A DNA stretch of 64,000 nt from Thermoproteota archaeon. GTDB lineage: Archaea; Korarchaeota; Korarchaeia; Korarchaeales; Korarchaeaceae. The stretch is from the NCBI GenBank assembly GCA_027491415.1, contig JAOZFH010000025.1, positions 19,974 through 83,973 of the forward strand. Direction: 5' to 3'. Every line of letters starts with the position of its first letter. The first letter of the stretch is position 1. Positions 3,419 to 38,953 of this stretch are shown here, piece after piece. Below the pieces are notes generated by a model. The model did no database searches. It was not told the DNA's origin and saw nothing but the letters and a program-made list of their open reading frames with translations. Made by a program: the position numbers and the translations under genes.

Positions 3419-3877
3419 TCAGCACCTCGCCTTCAGGGTCTCCGTCACCACGGCCGGGCAGACCCTCGTGACCCCCTGCATCTGGCTGATCTCCCTGAGT
3501 ATCCTATCCATTTCCTCCTCGTCTCTCGCCCATATCTCCAGCATTATCGCGTGGTCGCCTGCCGTTATCCAGGCTCCCTTGACGTACTTCTTGGACGCCA
3601 GCTCCCTGGCCAGCCTGATAAGATCTCCAGGCTCTACGTCCACCCCGGTCAGTGAGGTCACTCTGTAGCCCAGTGCCTTGGGGTCAACCACGGCGGTGTA
3701 GCCAAGGATGACTCCGCTCTTCTCCAGCCTGTTGAGCCTCTTTCTGACGGCGACGTCGCTTATCCCGAGAGCGTCGGCCAGCTCCCTGTAAGTCACCCTC
3801 CCGTTTTTCATTAGAATGCTAACTATGGTTAGGTCCTTATCGTCGAGCACGAGTCCAGCCTTGGTGGTCCTCACCAT
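3419..3877 (-). CDS. Lrp/AsnC family transcriptional regulator (LrpA-like)
   Basis: HTH LDDKD..NGRVTYRELA..LGISDVAVRKRLNRLEKSGVILGY followed by a RAM domain. Confidence 0.93.
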   Translation of the reverse strand: MVRTTKAGLVLDDKDLTIVSILMKNGRVTYRELADALGISDVAVRKRLNRLEKSGVILGYTAVVDPKALGYRVTSLTGVDVEPGDLIRLARELASKKYVKGAWITAGDHAIMLEIWARDEEEMDRILREISQMQGVTRVCPAVVTETLKARC

Positions 3878-4065
3878 CAGTCGCTCGAACCTCTTGTTCC
3901 GAGGTCGCAATTAAACAATTCGAAAAAGAAACCTTTTTATTTTGGAATGAAAACTTCTAAAAGATCTGGCGTTAAAGGGCAAATAGATATGGGACTGTGG
4001 CAGCCAAGCGCCGGCATAATGCTGTCTGGGTGAACGTTTATCTCTGTCCCGAGGAGCTTTTTGGT

Positions 4066-4329
4066 ATGCCCTGCCGAAAGAAGAAGAGAGGCTCGAAAGG
4101 CGCAGGCGGGCGCGCCAAGGCCGAACTCGACGAGGAGGCCATCGCCATCCTCAAGGCCTTGGCGTCTCTCAAGGAGCCGGCAGGTTGCTCTAAGATAGCC
4201 GAGATCGCCGGTCTGCCGGCGAGGAAGGTCACGGGCAAGCTGAGGGGACTCCTCAACAGGGGGCTGGTGTCTAGGCCCAGCAGGGGGGTCTACGTCATAA
4301 CCGACGAGGGGAGGAAGGCGGTTTCCTGA
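4066..4329 (+). CDS. Small winged-helix DNA-binding protein
   Basis: AILKAL..PAGCSKIAEIAGL..RKVTGKLRGLLNRGLV..GVYVITDEG, with a basic N-terminus. Confidence 0.75.
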   Translation: MPCRKKKRGSKGAGGRAKAELDEEAIAILKALASLKEPAGCSKIAEIAGLPARKVTGKLRGLLNRGLVSRPSRGVYVITDEGRKAVS

Positions 4330-18592: not shown

Positions 18593-20242
18593 TTAACGAT
18601 CAGTTCTGAACAGAATCCAAGCCCCCCTGAGGGGGTTGAAGTTCCAAATCAGGTCTTGCGAGCAGCTGAGGCACATCCACACTGGGTCGTACGAGTACCC
18701 CTCGTCCCTCAACACCGACTCCTTGAAGAAGGCCAGGGCCTCCAGAATGCCAGCCCTCCCGGCGCCGCCCGGGAGATAGTAGTCCGGGTAGGAGAGAGCA
18801 AAGGCGAGGAACTCGACTATTCGCGCGTACTCCCCGTCTATTAGCTGTCCCCTCGACGTGGTCGCTATGATCAGGGCCTGGCTGAGCCCCGATACCTCGC
18901 GCGCGAAGCCTTCGGCTTCGCAGCCGTTTACGAGGAGGACGAGCTTGCCGTAGCTCAGGTTGGCCAGCGCCCTCGATAGGTCCTCCGCAGTCAGGTTCCC
19001 AGGGGCGAGGTCGACCCAGTCCCACCCCGCGCCGTGGTGGGCGTCTATGACCACGAAGACGATGTCGTTCAGGTCCGACGGGAGGGAGGCGATGGCATGA
19101 AGGGCCCTCTCCACGTCCTCCTCGGTCTGAATTATGAGGTCCGGGTAGATCAACCCGGCCGAGGGGGCCTTCCTCCTCCTCCCCCAGGGGACGTCGGACA
19201 TGTACATGCCGACTTGGAAGGGGCCAGCCCAGCCCCTGGAGAGGTGCGTCCAGTACAGGGCCGTGGCGTCGAGTCCCTCCTCGGTTCGGAGGGACGTCTG
19301 GCTGACGATGAGGAGTATGCTGTCCTCGCCGTAGCCGTGCCTCTTCGCGAGGTGGTAGAGCATGAGAGAGCCGCCGGCCCCTATCCTGCCTCCCTGAATT
19401 ATCACGAGATACCTCTGGGACCTCCCGTAGAGCGCGTTAAGTCTAGGATTGTCCAGATCGTTCATGGGATCAGTTCCAGCCTCCAGCTCCTCAAGGTTGG
19501 AGAAGCCATCCGAGTCCGCATCTCCGCGCAGGACCTCACCTCCCAACAGGCCCGACTGGCACAGGTCCACGACGTAGTAGAAGGGGAGCGCCTCCAAGGA
19601 GAGTAGAGCGGATGTCTCTCCGTCGTCGACCACCCCGTCGCTCAACACGGCATCCACAAGCCTCGAAACGCAGCCGCGCGTCTCTTCCACCGTGAATAGT
19701 CTAGAGTATTCTGGAGGAGGTCCGCGCAGGATACCCTCCACGACCCTGACAAGGGCCCACTCTCCTTCCTCCATCCTCCCGTCTGCCTCGAGCCGAGACA
19801 GCATTCGATAGACCCACCTCTCCATCCCCGTGCGGATGGCGTAGGATAGGAGGGGGCTGGCCGACAGCGGGTTGCCACCCCAGCTGAACTCGTCCCCGTC
19901 GCAGATCCCATCTCCATCCGTGTCCCAGAGTACGGGAGAGGTTCCAATCTTCACTTCGAAGCCGTCCATCAGCCCGTCTAGGTCCGTGTCGAACTTTCCC
20001 ACCTTTGTCTTGTAGACCAGCTCCTCCAGCGCGTCGGCGAGCATGTCGTCATCTCTGTCCACCAGACCGAACGTGAGTGTGGTCAGGCTTCCCAGCTGGC
20101 TCAGCAGGAGCGCAAATGACAGGAGAGCACTTAGTCTCTTGGCCCTCGTCCTCCAGCGGATCAACCTCAGCGCGCTCAGAAGGCATGGGGGTGAACATAA
20201 CGGTTTGCCCCCGACCAAATCGGTCCTCCTGGCCTGATTCAA
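18593..20242 (-). CDS. Membrane-anchored protein with DxDxDG Ca-binding repeats and a C13/caspase-fold peptidase domain
   Basis: N-terminal TM, DTDLDGLMDGFE, DTDGDGICDGDE, DADSDGFSNLEE, then IVFVVIDAHHGAG...LVLLVNGCEAEGF (His-Gly/Cys dyad). Start position uncertain. Confidence 0.7.
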   Translation of the reverse strand: MNQARRTDLVGGKPLCSPPCLLSALRLIRWRTRAKRLSALLSFALLLSQLGSLTTLTFGLVDRDDDMLADALEELVYKTKVGKFDTDLDGLMDGFEVKIGTSPVLWDTDGDGICDGDEFSWGGNPLSASPLLSYAIRTGMERWVYRMLSRLEADGRMEEGEWALVRVVEGILRGPPPEYSRLFTVEETRGCVSRLVDAVLSDGVVDDGETSALLSLEALPFYYVVDLCQSGLLGGEVLRGDADSDGFSNLEELEAGTDPMNDLDNPRLNALYGRSQRYLVIIQGGRIGAGGSLMLYHLAKRHGYGEDSILLIVSQTSLRTEEGLDATALYWTHLSRGWAGPFQVGMYMSDVPWGRRRKAPSAGLIYPDLIIQTEEDVERALHAIASLPSDLNDIVFVVIDAHHGAGWDWVDLAPGNLTAEDLSRALANLSYGKLVLLVNGCEAEGFAREVSGLSQALIIATTSRGQLIDGEYARIVEFLAFALSYPDYYLPGGAGRAGILEALAFFKESVLRDEGYSYDPVWMCLSCSQDLIWNFNPLRGAWILFRTDR

Positions 20243-20388: not shown

Positions 20389-20411
20389 AAAATCTTTAAT
20401 TAATTGATAAA
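20389..20411 (+). promoter_or_regulatory. AT-rich promoter of the membrane protein-longin-GTPase operon
   Basis: aaaatctttaattaattgataaa, containing the palindrome ttaattaa, 35-50 nt upstream of 20443. Confidence 0.55.
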
Positions 20412-20442
20412 GCAGAACGTTTGAAGTACTCTCTTAGCTCTG

Positions 20443-21054
20443 GTGTGGTTCATGTCGGGCTTGAGCTTGTTGGGGAGGGTGGTGGCTTGGGAGTTCCTAG
20501 TGGCAGCCGCCGCCTATCTGCTAATGGCCGTCACAACCGGTCTCTCACCTAAGAAGTCCCCGCAGGTGGGATTCTTTGCACTCGGCTTTGCCTTTCTGTC
20601 GCTGGCCATGGCCGCCAGGTTCGTCTCCCTGTTCCTCCCCCCCGCCGTCAGGTGGAAGCTGACAATACCCTCTGGGGCCCTGGTCTTCATGTCGGCTTCG
20701 GCCCTCCTCAGCGGGTTCACCAGGCCCTCGTCAAGGCCGATTGCCGAGGCTGGGGTGATCGTTGCCGGGGCCGCGGTACTTGCAGTGGTTGGCAACGATC
20801 CCTCCGGCTTGTCCCTGATTGAGTTCTGCTACGGCCTCGTATTCTTCATCCTGTTCGCCCTGTCGGCCCGGGTTTACTCAAAGTCCGGCTTGTCCACCCA
20901 CCTCTTTCTAGCCCTGGGGCTTTTGCTGATTGGCCTGTCAGGCCTGTTGCCCGCGATCACCCTTCCGTTCCTGTCTCACGCTCGTCTCCTCTTGTCGGCC
21001 TCTCTTCACCTGGGCGCCGCCGTGTCATTCGTGTGGGCGCTCGCGGGGGTCTGA
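20443..21054 (+). CDS. Multi-pass (about 7 TM) membrane protein, putative sensor
   Basis: Almost entirely hydrophobic, with an internally repeated ALGF/ALGL motif after basic loops. Confidence 0.75.
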   Translation: MWFMSGLSLLGRVVAWEFLVAAAAYLLMAVTTGLSPKKSPQVGFFALGFAFLSLAMAARFVSLFLPPAVRWKLTIPSGALVFMSASALLSGFTRPSSRPIAEAGVIVAGAAVLAVVGNDPSGLSLIEFCYGLVFFILFALSARVYSKSGLSTHLFLALGLLLIGLSGLLPAITLPFLSHARLLLSASLHLGAAVSFVWALAGV

Positions 21055-21056
21055 GA

Positions 21057-21473
21057 ATGGGCCTGAGGGACGTCTACGTCTTCGAGGATCGCACGGGTAG
21101 GCTGGTGTTTGCCAAGTCGTACGGGAGTCTCAGGGGGGACGAGGATCTCATTTCAGGGTTCCTGTCCTCGATTCAAAACTTCCTCGCCGAGGTCGCGGAG
21201 GACGAGATAAAAGAAATCTCGGGAAGGAGGTTCAGGTTCCTGTTTAAGAGGGCGGGAGACTGCGTTGTTTGCGTCGTCGTTGACGGTAGCGAGGGCTCCG
21301 AGTCGTCCAAGAGGCTGCTGGACAGTGTTGCCAAGGCCTTCTTGAAGGCCAGCAGGGTGACCGGCCTCAGGCGGCTGGATCAGTTCGAGAAGAAGTGTGA
21401 CGAGATAGCGGAGAGCTGGGGGAAGCTGGTCAGATGGAGTGAGGCCCTAGACCAGCTCGATGAATGGGGGTGA
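21057..21473 (+). CDS. Longin-domain protein
   Basis: VYVF..TGRLVFAKSY...DEDLISGFLSSIQNFLAEV..EIKEI....RFLF.....VVCVVVD gives the bb-a-bbb-aa longin pattern. Confidence 0.8.
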   Translation: MGLRDVYVFEDRTGRLVFAKSYGSLRGDEDLISGFLSSIQNFLAEVAEDEIKEISGRRFRFLFKRAGDCVVCVVVDGSEGSESSKRLLDSVAKAFLKASRVTGLRRLDQFEKKCDEIAESWGKLVRWSEALDQLDEWG

Positions 21474-22177
21474 GACCCCTGGGCCTCAGCGCCATAGAAC
21501 TCCTCGAGTCCCTCCCACCAGAGCTCGTCTCAGCGGTTACGGAGGCTCTCAAATCACTCGGCCTCTCCCCCGGGGATCCGCTGGACGACGATCACCTCAC
21601 GAAGATTTTCAGGGAAGTCTCCCGGTCTCTCGGCAAGGCGAGAGCTTACCAGGCGTTCCGCGAGGCGGGCGTGGTGAGGGGGATCACCAGGGCGAAGGCC
21701 TTCGTGGTGGGAGACGCCGCGGTGGGGAAGACGACGTTCTGCGTCAAGCTGGCGACGGGAAGGTTCAAAGAGGAGTACAAGGTGACGGTCGGGGTCGACT
21801 TCTACACGCTCGACCTGATAAGCGGTGGCAGGCTTGTGAAGCTGGTGCTCTGGGATCTAGCAGGCCAGGAGAGGTTCGGCCTGGTGAGACCGAACTTCTA
21901 CGCCGGATCCTGCGGGGGTTTCATTGCATTCGCCTTGGACAGGCCCGAGACCCTTCGCAGCGTGCCGGGGTGGGTCAGGGAGATAGAGGAGAACGTGGGA
22001 AGGAAGGTTCCGGCCGTTCTGATCGGCACCAAGCTGGACCTCTCCCCAAGTCTTCCCGAGGCCTCGAACATCGCCGAGGAACTGGACCTGGTGGGCTACG
22101 TGCCCGTGAGCTCGAAGACCGGGGAGAACCTCATGAGAGCCGTCAGGACGCTCATTTCGGCCTGCGTCAACATCTAG
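21464..22177 (+). CDS. Rab-like small GTPase with an N-terminal helical extension of about 72 aa
   Basis: G1 GDAAVGKT, G2 YKVTVGVDF, G3 WDLAGQERF, G4 TKLD, G5 SSK. Confidence 0.92.
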   Translation: MGVRPLGLSAIELLESLPPELVSAVTEALKSLGLSPGDPLDDDHLTKIFREVSRSLGKARAYQAFREAGVVRGITRAKAFVVGDAAVGKTTFCVKLATGRFKEEYKVTVGVDFYTLDLISGGRLVKLVLWDLAGQERFGLVRPNFYAGSCGGFIAFALDRPETLRSVPGWVREIEENVGRKVPAVLIGTKLDLSPSLPEASNIAEELDLVGYVPVSSKTGENLMRAVRTLISACVNI

Positions 22178-23780: not shown

Positions 23781-25118
23781 ATGAGTGAGGAAGGCGAGGT
23801 TGCGGGCGCGCCCCGCAGGTTGAGTCTCGGGGTAGACCCGCTTGACTTGTTGTTGGATGGGGTTCAGCCTGGATCGATCCTAACAATGTTAGGGCCGCCA
23901 GGATCTGGGGCGAGCACACTTGCTGTGGAATTTCTGCTAAAAGACGTCGCAAGGGGGGAGAGGGCCGCGGTTCTCCTGACCACGCGGAGAACCTGGGAGC
24001 TCCTGAGGATCGCCGAGGCCTACGGGCAGGAACTGAAGAAGGGGCTGGACGGCAGACTGATCAAGGTCGTGGAGATCGAAAACCCGTTCGCTCAGAGCGA
24101 GGTGAACGAGTCCCTGGTCGAGTTCTTCACGGCCCTCGAGGAGTTCAAGCCGAGCCGCGTCTACGTAGACGTGATAGACCCCCTCCTAGTGACCCTCGGA
24201 CGAAGGGGTCTGATGTCGGGGCTCATAGGGCCACTGATCGAACTCTCCCGCAGAAAGAAGCTTCTGACGCTCATCAGATGTGCGACGCCTAGGACGTACT
24301 CTCTCCTCTCCCAGTTCTCGACGGGGGCCTTTAGACTGGAGTGGAGCCCCGAGACGAGGGAGGGGGGTAGCCTGAGGAAGCTTGTGCTGGACAACCTCCG
24401 CGACATCCCGCACCTAGAGTCCTCGACCGAGTTTAAGTTAATTCCAGGAGACGGGATAAGGGCGATAAGGCCCGGAGAACTCCCTGAGTGGCTGGAGCGA
24501 ATCCCCTCGGGACTCCCGGATCTGGACTCCGCCATCGGAGGTGGATACCCCTCGGGCTCGATGGTGCTGATCTCCGGCGGCCCTGGCTCCGGGAAGACCC
24601 TCCTCGCCCTCAAGTCCTCCGCGATTCTATCCAGTCGAGAACTGCGGGCTCTCTTCGTCAGCTTCGCGGAAGGTTCAGAGGACATCCTCAGGAGGGTCCG
24701 ATCCATTGGAAACGAGGTGACCGACTTCAGGGCCGTGGGAGCTGATCCCTCCATCGGATCCGTTGCGAGGCACATTCAGGAGCTGAAGGGGGCTCTCACT
24801 GAGCACAGCCCAGACGTCGTGGTCGTGGACGCCTTGGAACTCATGGTCTCCCTGCTGGACAGGTGGGAGGAGGGCCTGAGGTACCTGAGATTTCTGAGGG
24901 GGTGGGTCAGGGATTCAAAGGGACTGGCAGTCGTGTCGACGGGTAAGAATCCCTTGGTGGAGCTTGCCAGCCCATTGTTCGACGTCTCGCTGGAGCTGGA
25001 GGTCCTAGAGGTGGGCGACCGCCTAGTGAGGACGCTTAAGGTCCGGAAGGTGTCCTACGGTGGTGGGTCGGCGAGGAGGATACCCCTCTCCAGCTTAGAC
25101 GGGTCAGGCTCGAGGTAG
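23781..25118 (+). CDS. KaiC/RAD55-like double-domain ATPase with a degenerate N-domain
   Basis: N-domain Walker A GPPGSGAST lacks the Lys. C-domain has GGPGSGKT and VVVVD. Confidence 0.85.
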   Translation: MSEEGEVAGAPRRLSLGVDPLDLLLDGVQPGSILTMLGPPGSGASTLAVEFLLKDVARGERAAVLLTTRRTWELLRIAEAYGQELKKGLDGRLIKVVEIENPFAQSEVNESLVEFFTALEEFKPSRVYVDVIDPLLVTLGRRGLMSGLIGPLIELSRRKKLLTLIRCATPRTYSLLSQFSTGAFRLEWSPETREGGSLRKLVLDNLRDIPHLESSTEFKLIPGDGIRAIRPGELPEWLERIPSGLPDLDSAIGGGYPSGSMVLISGGPGSGKTLLALKSSAILSSRELRALFVSFAEGSEDILRRVRSIGNEVTDFRAVGADPSIGSVARHIQELKGALTEHSPDVVVVDALELMVSLLDRWEEGLRYLRFLRGWVRDSKGLAVVSTGKNPLVELASPLFDVSLELEVLEVGDRLVRTLKVRKVSYGGGSARRIPLSSLDGSGSR

Positions 25119-34948: not shown

Positions 34949-35971
34949 TTGGCCCGCCACGCCCTTGCGAAGCTCCTGTCCAAGCTCTCCGGGACGGCCG
35001 GGGGGGCTAGAGTTCCCTCCCACGTCCAAAAGGCCGCCTCGGAGGTCCTGGAGATCTGCGAGTACAGGCTGGTCCTCACGCTGGACTCGATGGGGTTCTT
35101 TAGGGATGTGGAGGGAATCAGCCCGGCCGAGGCGTCCCTGAAGTTCGCCGACAGGTCCCTCTTCTTCTCAATCATGGAGATCCTATCGCAGCTGGGGTAC
35201 GTCTCCGTGAGAAGGGGATTTGGCTTCATGGACGGCAGGATTCGGCAGGTTCACGACCTTCCCCCCTCCCCAATGGCCACTACGCCCGAGGCCATCGAGT
35301 TCGACTCCGTCTTCGCGGAGATAATCTCCTCCCTGCCGGACGCTCTGAAGGAGGGGAAGAGGAGCCTCCACGTCGCTTCATCGGAGAACAAGGCCCTCCT
35401 GGCCAAGATGTACGACTCAGAGGTCTTCAAGACCCTCCTCACGCTGGAGGTCAAGTCCCTGGGGATCTCCGACGTCCCGCCGCACGGGTTCATAGTCTCC
35501 CTCGGCCCCGGCGTCGGGGCCGAGCTGCCAACCGTCCTCCTGGAGTCTGACGCCAGGGTGATATCGGTGTTGAGCAGCGAGGACGACGCGAGAATCGCCG
35601 AGCTGACGCTGTCCGGCCTGGGCCTCCTCAGCGATCAGGTCATGTTCGTGGTTGGTCAGCCGGAGAGGCTCCACAGGATAATAGAGGAGGCCAAGACCGG
35701 CCCCGTCGACGCGGTCGTGGTGGTCCACTCGCTCCACTGGTCCAACGCGCCAGAGGCCTGCCTCAGAAACGCGTCGAAGGTGTCTCGGAGGGTTATGGTA
35801 TCCCAGCCCGTCCTCAGCGAGGCGACCTGGCCTCTATCCATAGCGAGCTACCTGCTGGGATCGAACATCCTCCCGAAGCCCGACCAGATAGACTTCTGGG
35901 TGAACTCCGCCGGGCTGTCCGGGAGGACCCTGATGACGAACCCGATTTACTTGGCCCAGCTCGTGAGGTGA
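34949..35971 (+). CDS. Class I SAM-methyltransferase-fold protein with an N-terminal helical domain, possibly degenerate
   Basis: IVSLGPGVG motif I (lacking the usual acidic residue) and VDAVVVVHSLHW. Confidence 0.65.
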   Translation: MARHALAKLLSKLSGTAGGARVPSHVQKAASEVLEICEYRLVLTLDSMGFFRDVEGISPAEASLKFADRSLFFSIMEILSQLGYVSVRRGFGFMDGRIRQVHDLPPSPMATTPEAIEFDSVFAEIISSLPDALKEGKRSLHVASSENKALLAKMYDSEVFKTLLTLEVKSLGISDVPPHGFIVSLGPGVGAELPTVLLESDARVISVLSSEDDARIAELTLSGLGLLSDQVMFVVGQPERLHRIIEEAKTGPVDAVVVVHSLHWSNAPEACLRNASKVSRRVMVSQPVLSEATWPLSIASYLLGSNILPKPDQIDFWVNSAGLSGRTLMTNPIYLAQLVR

Positions 35972-36043: not shown

Positions 36044-36571
36044 ATGAAACTTGCGAGGGGCCAATTATATCTCGGCGGCCGCGCTTCGGCGGGGAGCGCG
36101 TTGAGGCGGCTCAAGGTCATCTTCGCGGGCGAGTCAGAGGTGGGTAAGACCAGCGTGGCCGCGGCCATCTCGGCTGCCGGCCTGGCCAGCGGCGGGCCAA
36201 CGATAGGGGCCGACTTCTTCGTCTCGGGTCCAGACGGGGTCAGGGCCGTGATCTTCGACCTGGCCGGGCAGGACCGCTTCGCGCCGCTGGCCCCGCTGCT
36301 CTCGCGCGGCGCGAGGATCGTCGTCCTCATATTCGATGTCTCCAGGCCGGAGACCCTGTTGGCAATTCCGGATTGGGCCGAGAGGGTCCTCAGCGGGACG
36401 GAGGACGCGAAGGTGATCCTAGTGGGGAACAAGCTCGACGCGGGTCTCCGAGTGACGCCGGAGGACATCGCGTCCGTGGCGGCGGCGGTCGGCGCCCACA
36501 GGGTCATCCTGACGAGCGCTTCCACGGGATTCGGACTCAATGAACTCAGAAAGGAGCTCTTAGAGGCCTGA
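36044..36571 (+). CDS. Rab-like small GTPase
   Basis: GESEVGKTS, PTIGADF, FDLAGQDRF, NKLD, SAS. The start may be TTG at 36101. Confidence 0.9.
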   Translation: MKLARGQLYLGGRASAGSALRRLKVIFAGESEVGKTSVAAAISAAGLASGGPTIGADFFVSGPDGVRAVIFDLAGQDRFAPLAPLLSRGARIVVLIFDVSRPETLLAIPDWAERVLSGTEDAKVILVGNKLDAGLRVTPEDIASVAAAVGAHRVILTSASTGFGLNELRKELLEA

Positions 36572-36618
36572 CGAGATCTTGGGCTAAACCTATAATGCGG
36601 GCGGGGGAAGGTGGAGGG

Positions 36619-36924
36619 ATGAGGGGCACCCTCGCCCTCATGACCCTTGGCGCCCTGCTCATCGCCGCCCTGGTGGTGGGCTTCTCACTGCTGAAGCTCT
36701 TGGCAATCTTGGCGGGGGTGGGGTTCCTCTCCGGGGCGGCGTTCGGCGCCGCCTCCTCATCGGGCGGCCTCTCCCGGAGGGTGAAGTGGGCCCTGAAGGG
36801 CGGCCTGATTCTGGGGATTCTGATACCGGCGGCCGCGGCCCTCGCTATTCCGCTGGCTGCCGCCGGGCTGGTCATCGCGGCCGCCGGCGAGATCCTGTCT
36901 GCCCTCGACGAAGGCGGAGCTTGA
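36619..36924 (+). CDS. Small hydrophobic membrane protein
   Basis: Three to four Gly/Ala-rich TM segments. GGAGG precedes the ATG. Confidence 0.6.
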   Translation: MRGTLALMTLGALLIAALVVGFSLLKLLAILAGVGFLSGAAFGAASSSGGLSRRVKWALKGGLILGILIPAAAALAIPLAAAGLVIAAAGEILSALDEGGA

Positions 36925-37498
36925 CCTGACTCCAAAACTCCCGCAGCTTGGACGGCTCCCTTGGGGGGTTGAGGAACACCGAGAGCGGTATGTCGCCCGT
37001 CGCCGCGGCGAGGGAGAACGCCTCGACGGTTCTGACGGCCTCTTCCTGATCCCAGCTCTCCACGGCGCCGGGACGAACCCTCCTTACCTTCTCTATAGCC
37101 GCGCTGGCCGTCATGCCCCTCGTGAAGACGAGGTAGGCGGCCGCGAACATGCCCGACCTCCCCCTGCCAGCGAGGCAGTGGACCCCTAGCGGCCTCCCCA
37201 TCGAGACGACCCTCCTCGCCCACAGGAGGGCGTTGATCAGCTCCTCGGGCTCCGGAGACCTCCTGGTCTCCGTCGGAAGGAAGTACGGCCAGACGTCGTT
37301 GTCGAGCATGGCCCTAGCGAATAGGAGCACGTTTCCCCAGTACGTGAGGATCTCCCTCCCAGTCGCTAGGGACACGACCGCCCTGACTCCCTGGAGCCTG
37401 AGCTTCCTGATGGCCTCCCTGTCCACCGGAAAGCCGCAGATGGCCAGTTCGCCCGGGATCACCCAGAGGACCCACAAGGACCTCCACCCGCCTACCAC
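36872..37498 (-). CDS. Dual-specificity/PTP-like phosphatase
   Basis: HCLAGRGRSG (CX5R) and RPGAVES..Q. Start at 37498 or 37477. Confidence 0.9.
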   Translation of the reverse strand: MVGGWRSLWVLWVIPGELAICGFPVDREAIRKLRLQGVRAVVSLATGREILTYWGNVLLFARAMLDNDVWPYFLPTETRRSPEPEELINALLWARRVVSMGRPLGVHCLAGRGRSGMFAAAYLVFTRGMTASAAIEKVRRVRPGAVESWDQEEAVRTVEAFSLAAATGDIPLSVFLNPPREPSKLREFWSQVKLRLRRGQTGSRRRPR

Positions 37499-38379
37499 CA
37501 GGGGGCGCTGGAGAGGACCTCCTCTAGGCTGGCCCTCACGAACACGTGGAAGCACCTGCGCCTCTTGCGGTCCTGAGCCAGATCCACGTCCAAGAACCCT
37601 AGCCCCATCAACTTCTCAAAGACCTCCGCCGTCGCGGCCCTCCACTCTCGGAGTAAATCCAGCCTTCCCTCCCTCCTGTACTCTGAGACGCTCCAGGGGA
37701 TCTCGACGAGGGCCAGCTCGGCCTTCGACCTCACTCCGAGCACCCTTGGCCTCCTCAGCCGGTCCCCCTCTGGCCGAGAGTCCAGGCAGACGACGGCCCC
37801 CCTGTCCAGGAGTTCGCCCGGCGTCGGCGGGGGTCTCTCGGCGGCCGTGATCGCCCTCACCCTCTCCGAGTCCAGGAACCACTCCGCCACGACCCTGTCG
37901 GAGGGGATTCCCCTGTTCACCTCGTCAAGCATCTCCCCGTAGTAGCTCCTCACGTACGTCCTTATGACGACGCCCAGCTTTCCCAGGTTGAGCCTCGAGT
38001 TTCCGCGCTGCAGGGGGTCGAAGGTCCACTCTATGAGCCTCAGACCCCTAGAGAGGGCCGCCTCTCTCTGGGCCATCTTCAGCCTGAACCCGACCCCCCT
38101 CCCCTGCCACTCGGGCACGACCCCCATCATGTGCGAGTAGTGATACGGGCCCTCCGGCCCTAGACCGGTGAACCCGAAGACGAATCCGATCAGCCTTCCA
38201 GAAGACGGCTCGAACGCCCCCAGCACCACCCCCCCATTTTTGGCAGCGGCTATCAAAACGTGGGCGGGGACGCGCTCGATCTCGGGCATCCCCCAAGCGA
38301 GTTCTTGAACCTTCACCGCATCCTCAAATTCCTCGTACCGCAGGAGCGGGCGAACGACCACCTCCTCGCGTTCGGCCAT
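37492..38379 (-). CDS. GNAT family N-acyltransferase (COG3375-like)
   Basis: YSHMMGV..QGRGVG..LK..QR, WTFDPLQ, NLGKLG, YYG.M.D..NRG.PSDR. Confidence 0.88.
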   Translation of the reverse strand: MAEREEVVVRPLLRYEEFEDAVKVQELAWGMPEIERVPAHVLIAAAKNGGVVLGAFEPSSGRLIGFVFGFTGLGPEGPYHYSHMMGVVPEWQGRGVGFRLKMAQREAALSRGLRLIEWTFDPLQRGNSRLNLGKLGVVIRTYVRSYYGEMLDEVNRGIPSDRVVAEWFLDSERVRAITAAERPPPTPGELLDRGAVVCLDSRPEGDRLRRPRVLGVRSKAELALVEIPWSVSEYRREGRLDLLREWRAATAEVFEKLMGLGFLDVDLAQDRKRRRCFHVFVRASLEEVLSSAPWW

Positions 38380-38470: not shown

Positions 38471-38953
38471 TCACCCGCCACCCAGCCAGTCGGCGCCTCC
38501 CCGCTTCGGTCTCAAGTGTACCTTACACGTCTCCCCAGGTGTCAACCTCGCTTGGGCGCTCATCTGCCTACCCAGAACCTCGCCTACCATGAATGCGAGC
38601 ATTCCCCCCCAGGGGCAGGCCGTCCCCTCGAACTCGTACCCGCCCACCCTTTTCGGGCAGATGAGGCATCCGTCAATGGTGGCCACAACGGAGCCGTCAC
38701 CCCCGACCTCGAACCTGAGGGACTCGGCGAGCCTGCTGGAGACCAGCGCCTCTGTTAGATCGCTCAGAGACTTCGGCTGACAGCCGCTCTCGGACATGTG
38801 CTTCAGGATCTCTCTCCCGACCGCGTATCCCACCACGTTTATGACCGCCTGGGACGTCTTTCCCAGCACCCTCTCCATCCCAACCATGAAGCCTATGATC
38901 ACGGCGTTGAGCAAATTCCCGGCGCACTTCGCAGAGGGGTCCAACCGAGACAC
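38471..38953 (-). CDS. V4R-like / output-domain small protein
   Basis: VGYAVGREI, GCLICP...ACPWGG, TCKV. Confidence 0.65.
   Translation of the reverse strand: MSRLDPSAKCAGNLLNAVIIGFMVGMERVLGKTSQAVINVVGYAVGREILKHMSESGCQPKSLSDLTEALVSSRLAESLRFEVGGDGSVVATIDGCLICPKRVGGYEFEGTACPWGGMLAFMVGEVLGRQMSAQARLTPGETCKVHLRPKRGGADWLGGG

Follow-up and report, generated by a model that had tools for sequence, protein, structure and literature searches.

The DNA analysed here is a 64,000-nucleotide (nt) stretch of a korarchaeal genome (the window, to whose whole length all coordinates refer), and its + strand carries three adjoining genes, hereafter the triad, for a small membrane protein, a longin and a Ras/Rab-like GTPase. 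The window lies on contig 6 of a 1.78 Mb host assembly that is 96% complete (G000, labelled genus g1), and the host is a korarchaeote, outside Asgard. The parts of the locus are the following, with protein lengths in amino acids (aa).

20389-20413, + strand: candidate archaeal promoter, an A-rich stretch plus the TATA-like CTTTAATTAA, about 40-50 nt before the first start codon
20452-21054, + strand: gene 1, open reading frame for a seven-transmembrane (7TM) membrane protein, 200 aa from ATG
21057-21473, + strand: gene 2, open reading frame for a longin, 138 aa from ATG
21464-22177, + strand: gene 3, open reading frame for a GTPase, 237 aa from ATG
21464-21691, + strand: N-terminal domain of the GTPase (N-domain), about 76 aa, conserved in all full-length family members
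21692-22177, + strand: G domain of the GTPase, Ras/Rab-like, with G1-G5 intact

An earlier reading of this DNA (the original prediction) described three tightly coupled genes behind an AT-rich promoter of their own. Open reading frames and direct reading of the sequence confirm the coupling: the gene 1 stop codon (21052-21054) and the gene 2 ATG (21057) leave a gap of 2 nt, and genes 2 and 3 overlap by 10 nt (21464-21473). The motifs it had quoted, DLISGFLSSIQNF, TVGVDF and WDLAGQERF, were all found in the translated proteins. Gene 1 has an alternative GTG start at 20443 that gives 203 aa (20443-21054); the ATG at 20452, which stands behind GGTG, appears the more likely start, and public gene calls run to 199-200 aa. 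The intergenic region upstream of gene 1 measures 200 nt, and within it AAAATCTTTAATT (20389-20401) is invariant in four of four genus g1 genomes while the flanking intergenic DNA has diverged; this element fits an archaeal TATA box about 45 nt 5' of the start codon and is our candidate for the promoter that had been proposed. Both flanking genes are on the opposite strand, divergent upstream and convergent downstream, which marks the three genes off as a separate unit; the downstream neighbour, a major facilitator superfamily (MFS) transporter, ends with its stop 2 nt past the GTPase stop. All three proteins are 54-99% identical to their counterparts in three other genus g1 genomes, and because of this conservation and the invariance of the G motifs across the GTPase family the reading frames are not chance ones.

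The middle protein is a true longin, as judged from its profile and its predicted structure. By itself the sequence reached 19.4 bits (E 1.3e-3) against Pfam Fuz_longin_1, under the cut-off of 26.1, and the Pfam scan gave no match to PF03259 (Roadblock/LC7). When the genus alignment was run with HMMER against all 1.84 billion representatives, 175 relatives came out at E <= 1e-3 but only two at E <= 1e-10, and an alignment of 44 of the relatives was used for both the AlphaFold2 (AF2) model and the profile search of the PDB. The model (predicted local distance difference test, pLDDT, 83.2; predicted template modelling score, pTM, 0.75) consists of strands at 3-10 and 16-21, a helix at 29-47, strands at 53-55, 59-66 and 69-76, and helices at 81-100 and 105-137. 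This five-stranded order (strand-strand-helix-strand-strand-strand-helix-helix) lacks an N-terminal helix and ends in two C-terminal helices, which makes the protein a longin and not a roadblock protein by the element orders described for the two folds by Tran et al. (PMC10933270).

Structural comparison agrees. In Foldseek the model matched 151 PDB chains at E <= 1e-3, with those listed all of the roadblock/longin superfamily, and its best VIA-align match was TRAPP Trs23 (3cue_A; Z 12.7 over 120 residues, root-mean-square deviation 2.6), followed by delta-COP, CPLANE (Fuzzy, Z 12.3), BLOC-3 (Z 11.4), SNARE longins, MglB, adaptor sigma and mu chains, synbindin and Mon1-Ccz1. Longin chains aligned over 115-136 residues, against 94-103 for roadblock chains. 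The 44-sequence profile found Bet5 as its best match in the PDB (E 1.5e-5), then AP-3 sigma (1.9e-4), Mon1 (4.3e-4) and TRAPPC1 (5.5e-4). Across the 44 sequences G34 is invariant and G14 nearly so, and no other residue is; a subset of 11 sequences has L31, G34 and F35 without exception and D28, S37 and D76 almost without exception. Most of these residues sit in a motif that opens helix 1, DxxLISGFLSAI (DEDLISGFLSSIQ in the window protein), and the C-terminal helix is long, acidic and Trp-bearing. Fold order, structure and profile thus agree on the stand-alone longin of the original prediction.

A role as guanine nucleotide exchange factor (GEF) is favoured for this longin, since its nearest relatives in both sequence and modelled structure are GEF cores. 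GTPase-activating protein (GAP) and effector readings are kept, as scores no more than about 1-4 Z below the top are reached by MglB and SRX and by GAP longins and coat longins. The first of these, which we consider rather unlikely, would make the longin the off-switch in the same complex, the part played by MglB towards MglA in bacteria and by the longin subunits NPRL2, FLCN and SMCR8 towards Rag and Arf/Rab GTPases in eukaryotes. The one well-studied prokaryotic operon partner with a roadblock/longin fold, MglB, is a GAP (PMC4316618), and it stands near the GEF longins in VIA-align (3t1r_A, Z 11.0; 6hjm_A, Z 10.9), with C9orf72-SMCR8 at Z 9.8 and GATOR1 chains at Z 9.3. The best profile matches, on the other hand, are the GEF-core longins Bet5 and Mon1 and not GAP longins, roadblock chains cover less of the model than longins do, and the wider family of 44 sequences has no conserved arginine, only the two (near-)invariant glycines. 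The GTPase also has a catalytic Gln of its own, which argues in the same direction though it is compatible with a GAP.

Gene 3 encodes a Ras/Rab-like (RasL-like) GTPase rather than a Rab proper, to go by its sequence. Pfam gives Ras at 4.8e-33 (114.5 bits against a cut-off of 21.6), Roc at 2.3e-22 and Arf at 3e-4, and among proteins of solved structure the closest are Rab43 (6.3e-27), a Thorarchaeota Rab (2e-22) and Rab4B, Rab30, Rab21 and Rab1, then Rho1 and Ran at about 1e-20. The G domain contains GDAAVGKT, T108, WDLAGQ, TKLD and SSK, and all five G motifs (P-loop Lys/Thr, switch-I Thr, WDxAGQERF and TKxD, including the DxxGQ Gln) are invariant in 17 of 17 aligned family GTPases; since every catalytic motif is kept, the protein is predicted to be a competent GTPase switch. 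Against the RabF1-F5 family motifs, VGVDF fits F1, KLVLW, RFGLVR and FYAGS fit F2-F4 in part, and IAFALD misfits F5. Eukaryotic Rabs use a lipid anchor at the membrane. In the 17-sequence alignment a conserved C-terminal cysteine motif was not found: the window protein ends in CVNI, its orthologues in CVE, CLR or LPEI, and the g2 members are without any cysteine, so another link to the membrane would be needed, and the 7TM protein is the obvious candidate for it. The Rab-type GTPase of the original prediction is therefore upheld as Rab-like by its Pfam Ras and Rab43 matches and not as a Rab with the C-terminal cysteines of that type.

In a quick FastTree run on 133 G domains, of which most were best matches of the query itself and only one was a eukaryotic Rab, the N-extended family formed a single clade with a division by genus (17 rows, support 99), and other korarchaeal Ras-like GTPases formed a separate clade (8 rows, support 99). 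The N-extended family joins a 33-row clade that contains Asgard-named 'Rab family GTPase' sequences, at a support of only 82. "Rab-like" is the right term because Vargova et al. (10.1101/2024.02.28.582541) find in their phylogeny no archaeal sequence specifically sister to Rabs, and such proteins are termed RasL there. The P-loop starts at residue 83 and the N-extension is therefore about 76 aa, against the roughly 72 aa first given; the unexplained N-domain, which the original prediction took to be helical, is present, conserved and without recognisable relatives. Aligned in nine sequences from both genera it has L17, L40, D42 and G57 invariant; the best match of a profile search in the PDB, the N-terminal part of an H-NOX protein, is not significant (E 0.044), and an Atlas search returned no usable match. 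A 160-aa window protein at 38474-38953, suspected of being V4R-like, was rejected as a relative (hhalign 0.2% against the N-domain; no Pfam match).

The link between longin and GTPase extends beyond gene order. A motif test found P-loop and NKxD motifs in twelve of the 149 distant relatives of the longin that were listed, and a Pfam check of 10 of these confirmed six, four with a longin followed by a GTPase and two with an Arf followed by a longin. Of ten longin-relative clusters looked up, five carry organism names and all of these are Asgard (Jord-, Frey-, Odin-, Hel- and Promethearchaeota), and a longin locus search with a narrow alignment returned six loci, with both of the named distant genome loci again Asgard. 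Longin-GTPase fusions are also described by Tran et al. (PMC10933270). The fusions among Asgard relatives tie the two protein types together and bear out the association of longins with small GTPases in Asgard on which the original prediction had drawn. The GTPase genes of the Asgard strain MK-D1 do not as a rule share operons with roadblock or longin genes, and for this reason Asgard GTPases are hard to pair with their regulators (PMC10933270). A complex prediction for two longin copies and the GTPase with separate alignments scored 0.25, against a mark of 0.32, and was used neither for nor against binding.

The fusions also bear on the effector reading, in which the longin would be an adaptor that binds the GTP form only, like SRX on SR-beta or sigma and zeta chains in Arf-recruited coats, and the 7TM protein would be the target or cargo. 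It draws on the VIA-align matches to delta-COP (5mu7_B, Z 12.4), AP-3 chains (Z 10.6-11.0) and SRX (2go5_1, Z 9.4; 5ck3_A, Z 8.1), on AP-3 and AP-2 sigma chains that match the longin profile at E 1.9e-4 to 2.7e-3, and on the membrane protein gene, which is always in the unit at the loci read. Longin-GTPase fusions are more in keeping with a constitutive partner than with one that depends on the nucleotide, and nothing sets the effector reading apart from a regulator role; we regard it as unlikely.

Conservation of the triad was followed through 43 genomes sampled from the korarchaeal phylum. Genus g1 has the order 7TM-longin-GTPase in G000, G002, G003 and G004, and the fifth g1 genome (G001, 72% complete) has a GTPase fragment only, at a contig end. 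Each of the five genus g2 genomes carries an orthologous N-extended GTPase (44-50% identity) and a protein of about 300 aa whose N-terminal 120 residues are homologous to the gene 2 longin (hhalign 98.6%, E 1.1e-15), while the C-terminal half of that protein shows no significant similarity to the longin profile (hhalign 0.7%). Where g2 loci were read out, the longin-extended protein comes first, next a protein of 217-267 aa that has 5-8 hydrophobic segments, and last the GTPase. Such a unit occurs twice in G005, in one case with the membrane protein and GTPase genes overlapping by 17 nt (L042), and in the other four g2 genomes the longin and GTPase matches lie 1.4-1.7 kb apart on the same contig. 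The triad is thus conserved in related genomes, as the original prediction would have it, in two genera, in two gene orders and twice in G005.

By profile search a longin-like domain occurs in 22 of 40 genomes of the class, namely three of four in g1 plus the window's own genome, five of five in g2, 13 of 21 in g3 and none of nine in four other genera. The unit in genus g3 (L027, 537-3155, + strand; also L020, L029 and other g3 loci) encodes, in this order, a roadblock-like protein of 120 aa, an Arf-type GTPase, a protein of 151 aa and one of 273 aa that has 6-7 hydrophobic segments. The Arf-type GTPase (300 aa; Pfam Arf 1.6e-49) has a C-terminal longin-like domain, and the 151-aa and roadblock-like proteins gave no significant match to the longin profile (hhalign 0.6% and 7.5%, respectively). 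Ten metagenome contigs carry a family GTPase, with a longin gene on seven and a transmembrane (TM) gene on six; one of them has no upstream DNA (L058), another is cut inside the first gene (L061), and the contigs are not independent evidence because they may come from the same organisms as the genomes.

The membrane protein had no match in Pfam (E <= 1), NCBIfam or PADLOC, and a search of 5.8 billion proteins found only four homologues, all at least 71% identical and one of them named Candidatus Korarchaeota; it is an orphan family seen in genus g1 only. A reading of the triad as anti-phage defence was rejected. The AF2 model, built on an alignment of six rows only, shows seven helices and no soluble domain (pLDDT 72.2, pTM 0.72), which supports the seven-helix protein without a soluble domain described in the original prediction. 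In VIA-align its best matches were designed soluble folds like those of G-protein-coupled receptors (GPCRs; Z 14.5 and 13.5), followed by the transmembrane domains of the class C GPCRs mGlu1, GPRC5D, mGlu5, GABA-B and CaSR (Z 10.4-11.7) and by LYCHOS (Z 9.5), on a scale where helical bundles often reach Z 13-14. The GPCR-like matches span 172-186 of the 200 residues, Foldseek found no match in the PDB at E <= 0.001 (best 0.042), and the GPCR-like fold is put forward as a lead from the model. An Atlas search gave unnamed Bacillota clusters at 0.95 and, again as a lead only, a HisKA_7TM-bearing cluster at 0.79 in which 10% of members carry the domain. Outside the helices, loops 1 and 3 are the most conserved parts, with 9 of 15 and 7 of 10 positions invariant; LSPKKSPQ and PSSRP are conserved loop motifs.

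These data also bear on a reading in which only the longin-GTPase pair is functional and the membrane protein is an unrelated neighbour on the same transcript. No relationship was detected among the membrane proteins of the three genera, and the g1 protein is an orphan with four homologues in all and none credible in 301 Asgard genomes, as this reading would lead one to expect. Small polytopic proteins (at least five TM segments and at most 300 aa by hydropathy) make up only 38 of about 1685 crude open reading frames, about 2%, in the host genome. One is nevertheless inside the unit in both g1 and g2 despite the changed order, as well as in both G005 copies and in the Arf-type unit of g3. In g2 the gene lies between those of the longin and the GTPase, and starts and stops are coupled by the 2-nt gap in the window and the overlap in L042. 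We consider it improbable that the membrane protein is a mere passenger.

The reading we prefer, which we put at an even balance between right and wrong, is that one transcription unit builds a membrane-held small-GTPase switch, with the longin as partner of the GTPase, the 7TM protein as its membrane holder and the N-domain as an adaptor. The 138-aa longin, probably a dimer like other longin/roadblock platforms, would bind the Rab-like GTPase through its conserved helix-1 face and would presumably act in the direction of nucleotide exchange. The seven-helix protein would replace a Rab-type lipid anchor and hold the longin-GTPase pair at the cell membrane, and it may also relay a signal, although sensing of a signal by it is speculation. 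The N-domain would be a family-specific adaptor for the longin, the 7TM protein or an effector. The original prediction had gone further and proposed a receptor/GEF/GTPase module; of this the longin, the Ras/Rab-like GTPase and the conserved triad stood, and sensing, an exchange-factor role and binding among the three proteins gained no supporting result.

Several observations weigh against the membrane-held switch. Longin/roadblock partners can be GAPs or effectors, and the structural matches no more than about 1-4 Z below the top include MglB, LAMTOR2, adaptor sigma and zeta-COP chains, SRX and C9orf72-SMCR8. No arginine or other catalytic residue could be assigned in the longin. The 7TM model rests on six close sequences, its structural scores are of a height that helical bundles commonly reach, and its topology is not settled by loop charge (five Lys and Arg in odd loops against four in even loops). 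A profile of the membrane protein gave eight weak partial matches in the 301 Asgard genomes, none longer than 58 residues and none credible (best E 1.7e-4 per genome). Between the g1, g2 and g3 membrane proteins no mutual similarity was detected (hhalign probability at most 0.3%), so their recurrence is a matter of extreme divergence or of repeated recruitment, and it may be analogy or chance. One metagenome contig (L065) has a family GTPase without a longin or small TM neighbour; this protein of the N-extended family (3576-4169, 197 aa), which is without the first 40 or so residues of the N-domain, is the sole exception to the triad that was found.

A more ambitious version, and a very unlikely one in our view, would see a complete prokaryotic membrane-receptor cascade, in which a 7TM receptor of GPCR fold would alter its shape when a signal arrives and, via a longin GEF docked on its conserved loops, would load GTP on the Rab-like switch. 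Such a cascade would be a working analogue, and possibly a relative, of the eukaryotic lysosomal LYCHOS/GATOR1/Rag circuits and part of an archaeal longin-GTPase-7TM theme shared with Asgard.

Among known systems, the triad belongs with the small GTPases that are paired with a roadblock or longin partner. The longin's best matches in structure and profile, the longins of eukaryotic Rab GEFs (TRAPP Bet5/Trs23, Mon1-Ccz1, Fuzzy-Inturned CPLANE and HPS1-HPS4 BLOC-3), agree with it in fold, in helix order and in having a Rab-like partner, but the korarchaeal longin is a single 138-aa domain and not a heterodimer of multi-longin subunits, the unit has no Bet3-type subunit as in TRAPP, and gene 2 does not have the three successive longin domains of tri-longin GEFs of the Mon1-Ccz1 type. 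It is also prokaryotic and outside Asgard, stands in an operon with a 7TM gene, and has a GEF role that is putative. In MglA-MglB and further prokaryotic GTPase/roadblock operons (Wuichet and Sogaard-Andersen, PMC4316618) a Ras-superfamily GTPase likewise goes with a small partner of roadblock/longin superfold (MglB, Z 11.0), whereas the korarchaeal partner has the longin helix order, without an N-terminal helix or PF03259, and the korarchaeal GTPase has a standard DxxGQ G3 motif and groups with Rab-like/RasL sequences.

For the longin and for the G domain alike, the closest relatives with a name come from the Asgard repertoire (Tran et al., PMC10933270; Liu et al., 10.1101/2020.10.19.343400), which also has longin-GTPase fusions, yet the korarchaeal parts are separate genes in one operon, unlike the MK-D1 GTPases, which are generally not in such operons. 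An Asgard operon of LAMTOR1-like, Rab-like and DENN genes has been described (PMC10933270; 10.1101/2020.10.19.343400); the korarchaeal unit is without a DENN or LAMTOR1-like gene and adds a 7TM gene and the N-domain of the GTPase. Korarchaeal ArfR (Kcr_0908 type; Vargova et al., 10.1101/2024.02.28.582541) is, like gene 3, a eukaryote-like small GTPase confined to part of the Korarchaeia, and the Arf-type GTPase of genus g3 resembles it in architecture. The g3 unit shares with the triad a longin-like domain and a 6-7-TM protein, and differs in its Arf-type GTPase with a fused C-terminal longin-like domain, in its roadblock-like and 151-aa proteins and in belonging to a different genus. The neighbours of ArfR are not discussed in the parts of that source available to us.

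Haloferax ArvA-ArvB-ArvC (PMC10927574) is also an archaeal three-gene operon around a membrane-acting small GTPase, and ArvA homologues are recorded there in eight Korarchaeota. ArvB and ArvC are DUF2073 and DUF2072 zinc-ribbon proteins encoded downstream of the GTPase gene, whereas in the korarchaeal unit the 7TM protein and the longin are encoded upstream and the GTPase is of Ras type. A reading of the triad as this vesiculation operon was rejected, with no DUF2073- or DUF2072-type Pfam match in the partners and the convergent MFS transporter as the gene after the GTPase.

The host assembly has four Ras-family matches and three Roadblock/LC7 (PF03259) proteins, the latter away from the triad, which is therefore one of several small-GTPase modules of this organism. 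On contig 55 of the host (L080) three genes, all on the + strand, encode a Roadblock/LC7 protein (165-602; PF03259, 7.3e-10), a V4R protein (625-1182; PF02830, 7.3e-9) and a 227-aa small GTPase (1195-1878); this operon is an MglB/MglA-like module, and V4R is a domain family tied to TRAPPC3 by Tran et al. (PMC10933270). The window itself contains a second Ras-family GTPase gene (36044-36571, + strand; 175 aa, Pfam Ras 1.1e-18) with no longin or roadblock gene adjoining; its neighbours are a gene for a 340-aa protein without a Pfam match upstream (34949-35971), one for a 109-aa hydrophobic protein downstream (36595-36924) and, on the opposite strand, one for a dual-specificity phosphatase (36872-37555; PTP-SAK 3.3e-13). 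In two other g1 genomes (G003, contig C45, 2535-3059, and G001, contig C149, 1555-2079; loci L046 and L047) a Ras-like domain lies in a frame of 542-544 aa with one in-frame TGA, which could reflect two genes, a recoding site or a broken gene. Upstream of the triad and divergent from its promoter region, 18593-20242 (- strand) encodes a protein of 549 aa that bears thrombospondin type 3 repeats of the bacterial kind (TSP3_bac, 3.6e-11). Two genes downstream, 23781-25118 (+ strand) encodes a 445-aa two-domain KaiC/RecA-like ATPase (Pfam KaiC 1.4e-26), a gene that is not kept beside the triad in genus g2.

No published description of the triad was found in the literature searched, which supports the original prediction in calling it undescribed within that literature; supplementary tables that may list korarchaeal GTPases were outside the search. 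Small GTPases with longin or roadblock regulators organise eukaryotic membranes, and the archaeal forerunners of these systems are mostly known from Asgard genomes. Here the order of the genes assigns one membrane protein and one longin to one GTPase, in a small set and in a lineage outside Asgard. Biochemical assays and structure determination should be straightforward because the triad proteins are short and without extra domains, and the triad could show whether a single longin domain can act as a GEF or a GAP and by what means a GTPase that lacks a lipid anchor is kept at a membrane. It also bears on whether longin-GTPase pairs are older than the Asgard lineage or spread from Asgard by gene transfer. 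With its function putative, the triad offers a matched and testable set of switch and regulator in a hot-spring-type archaeon outside Asgard.

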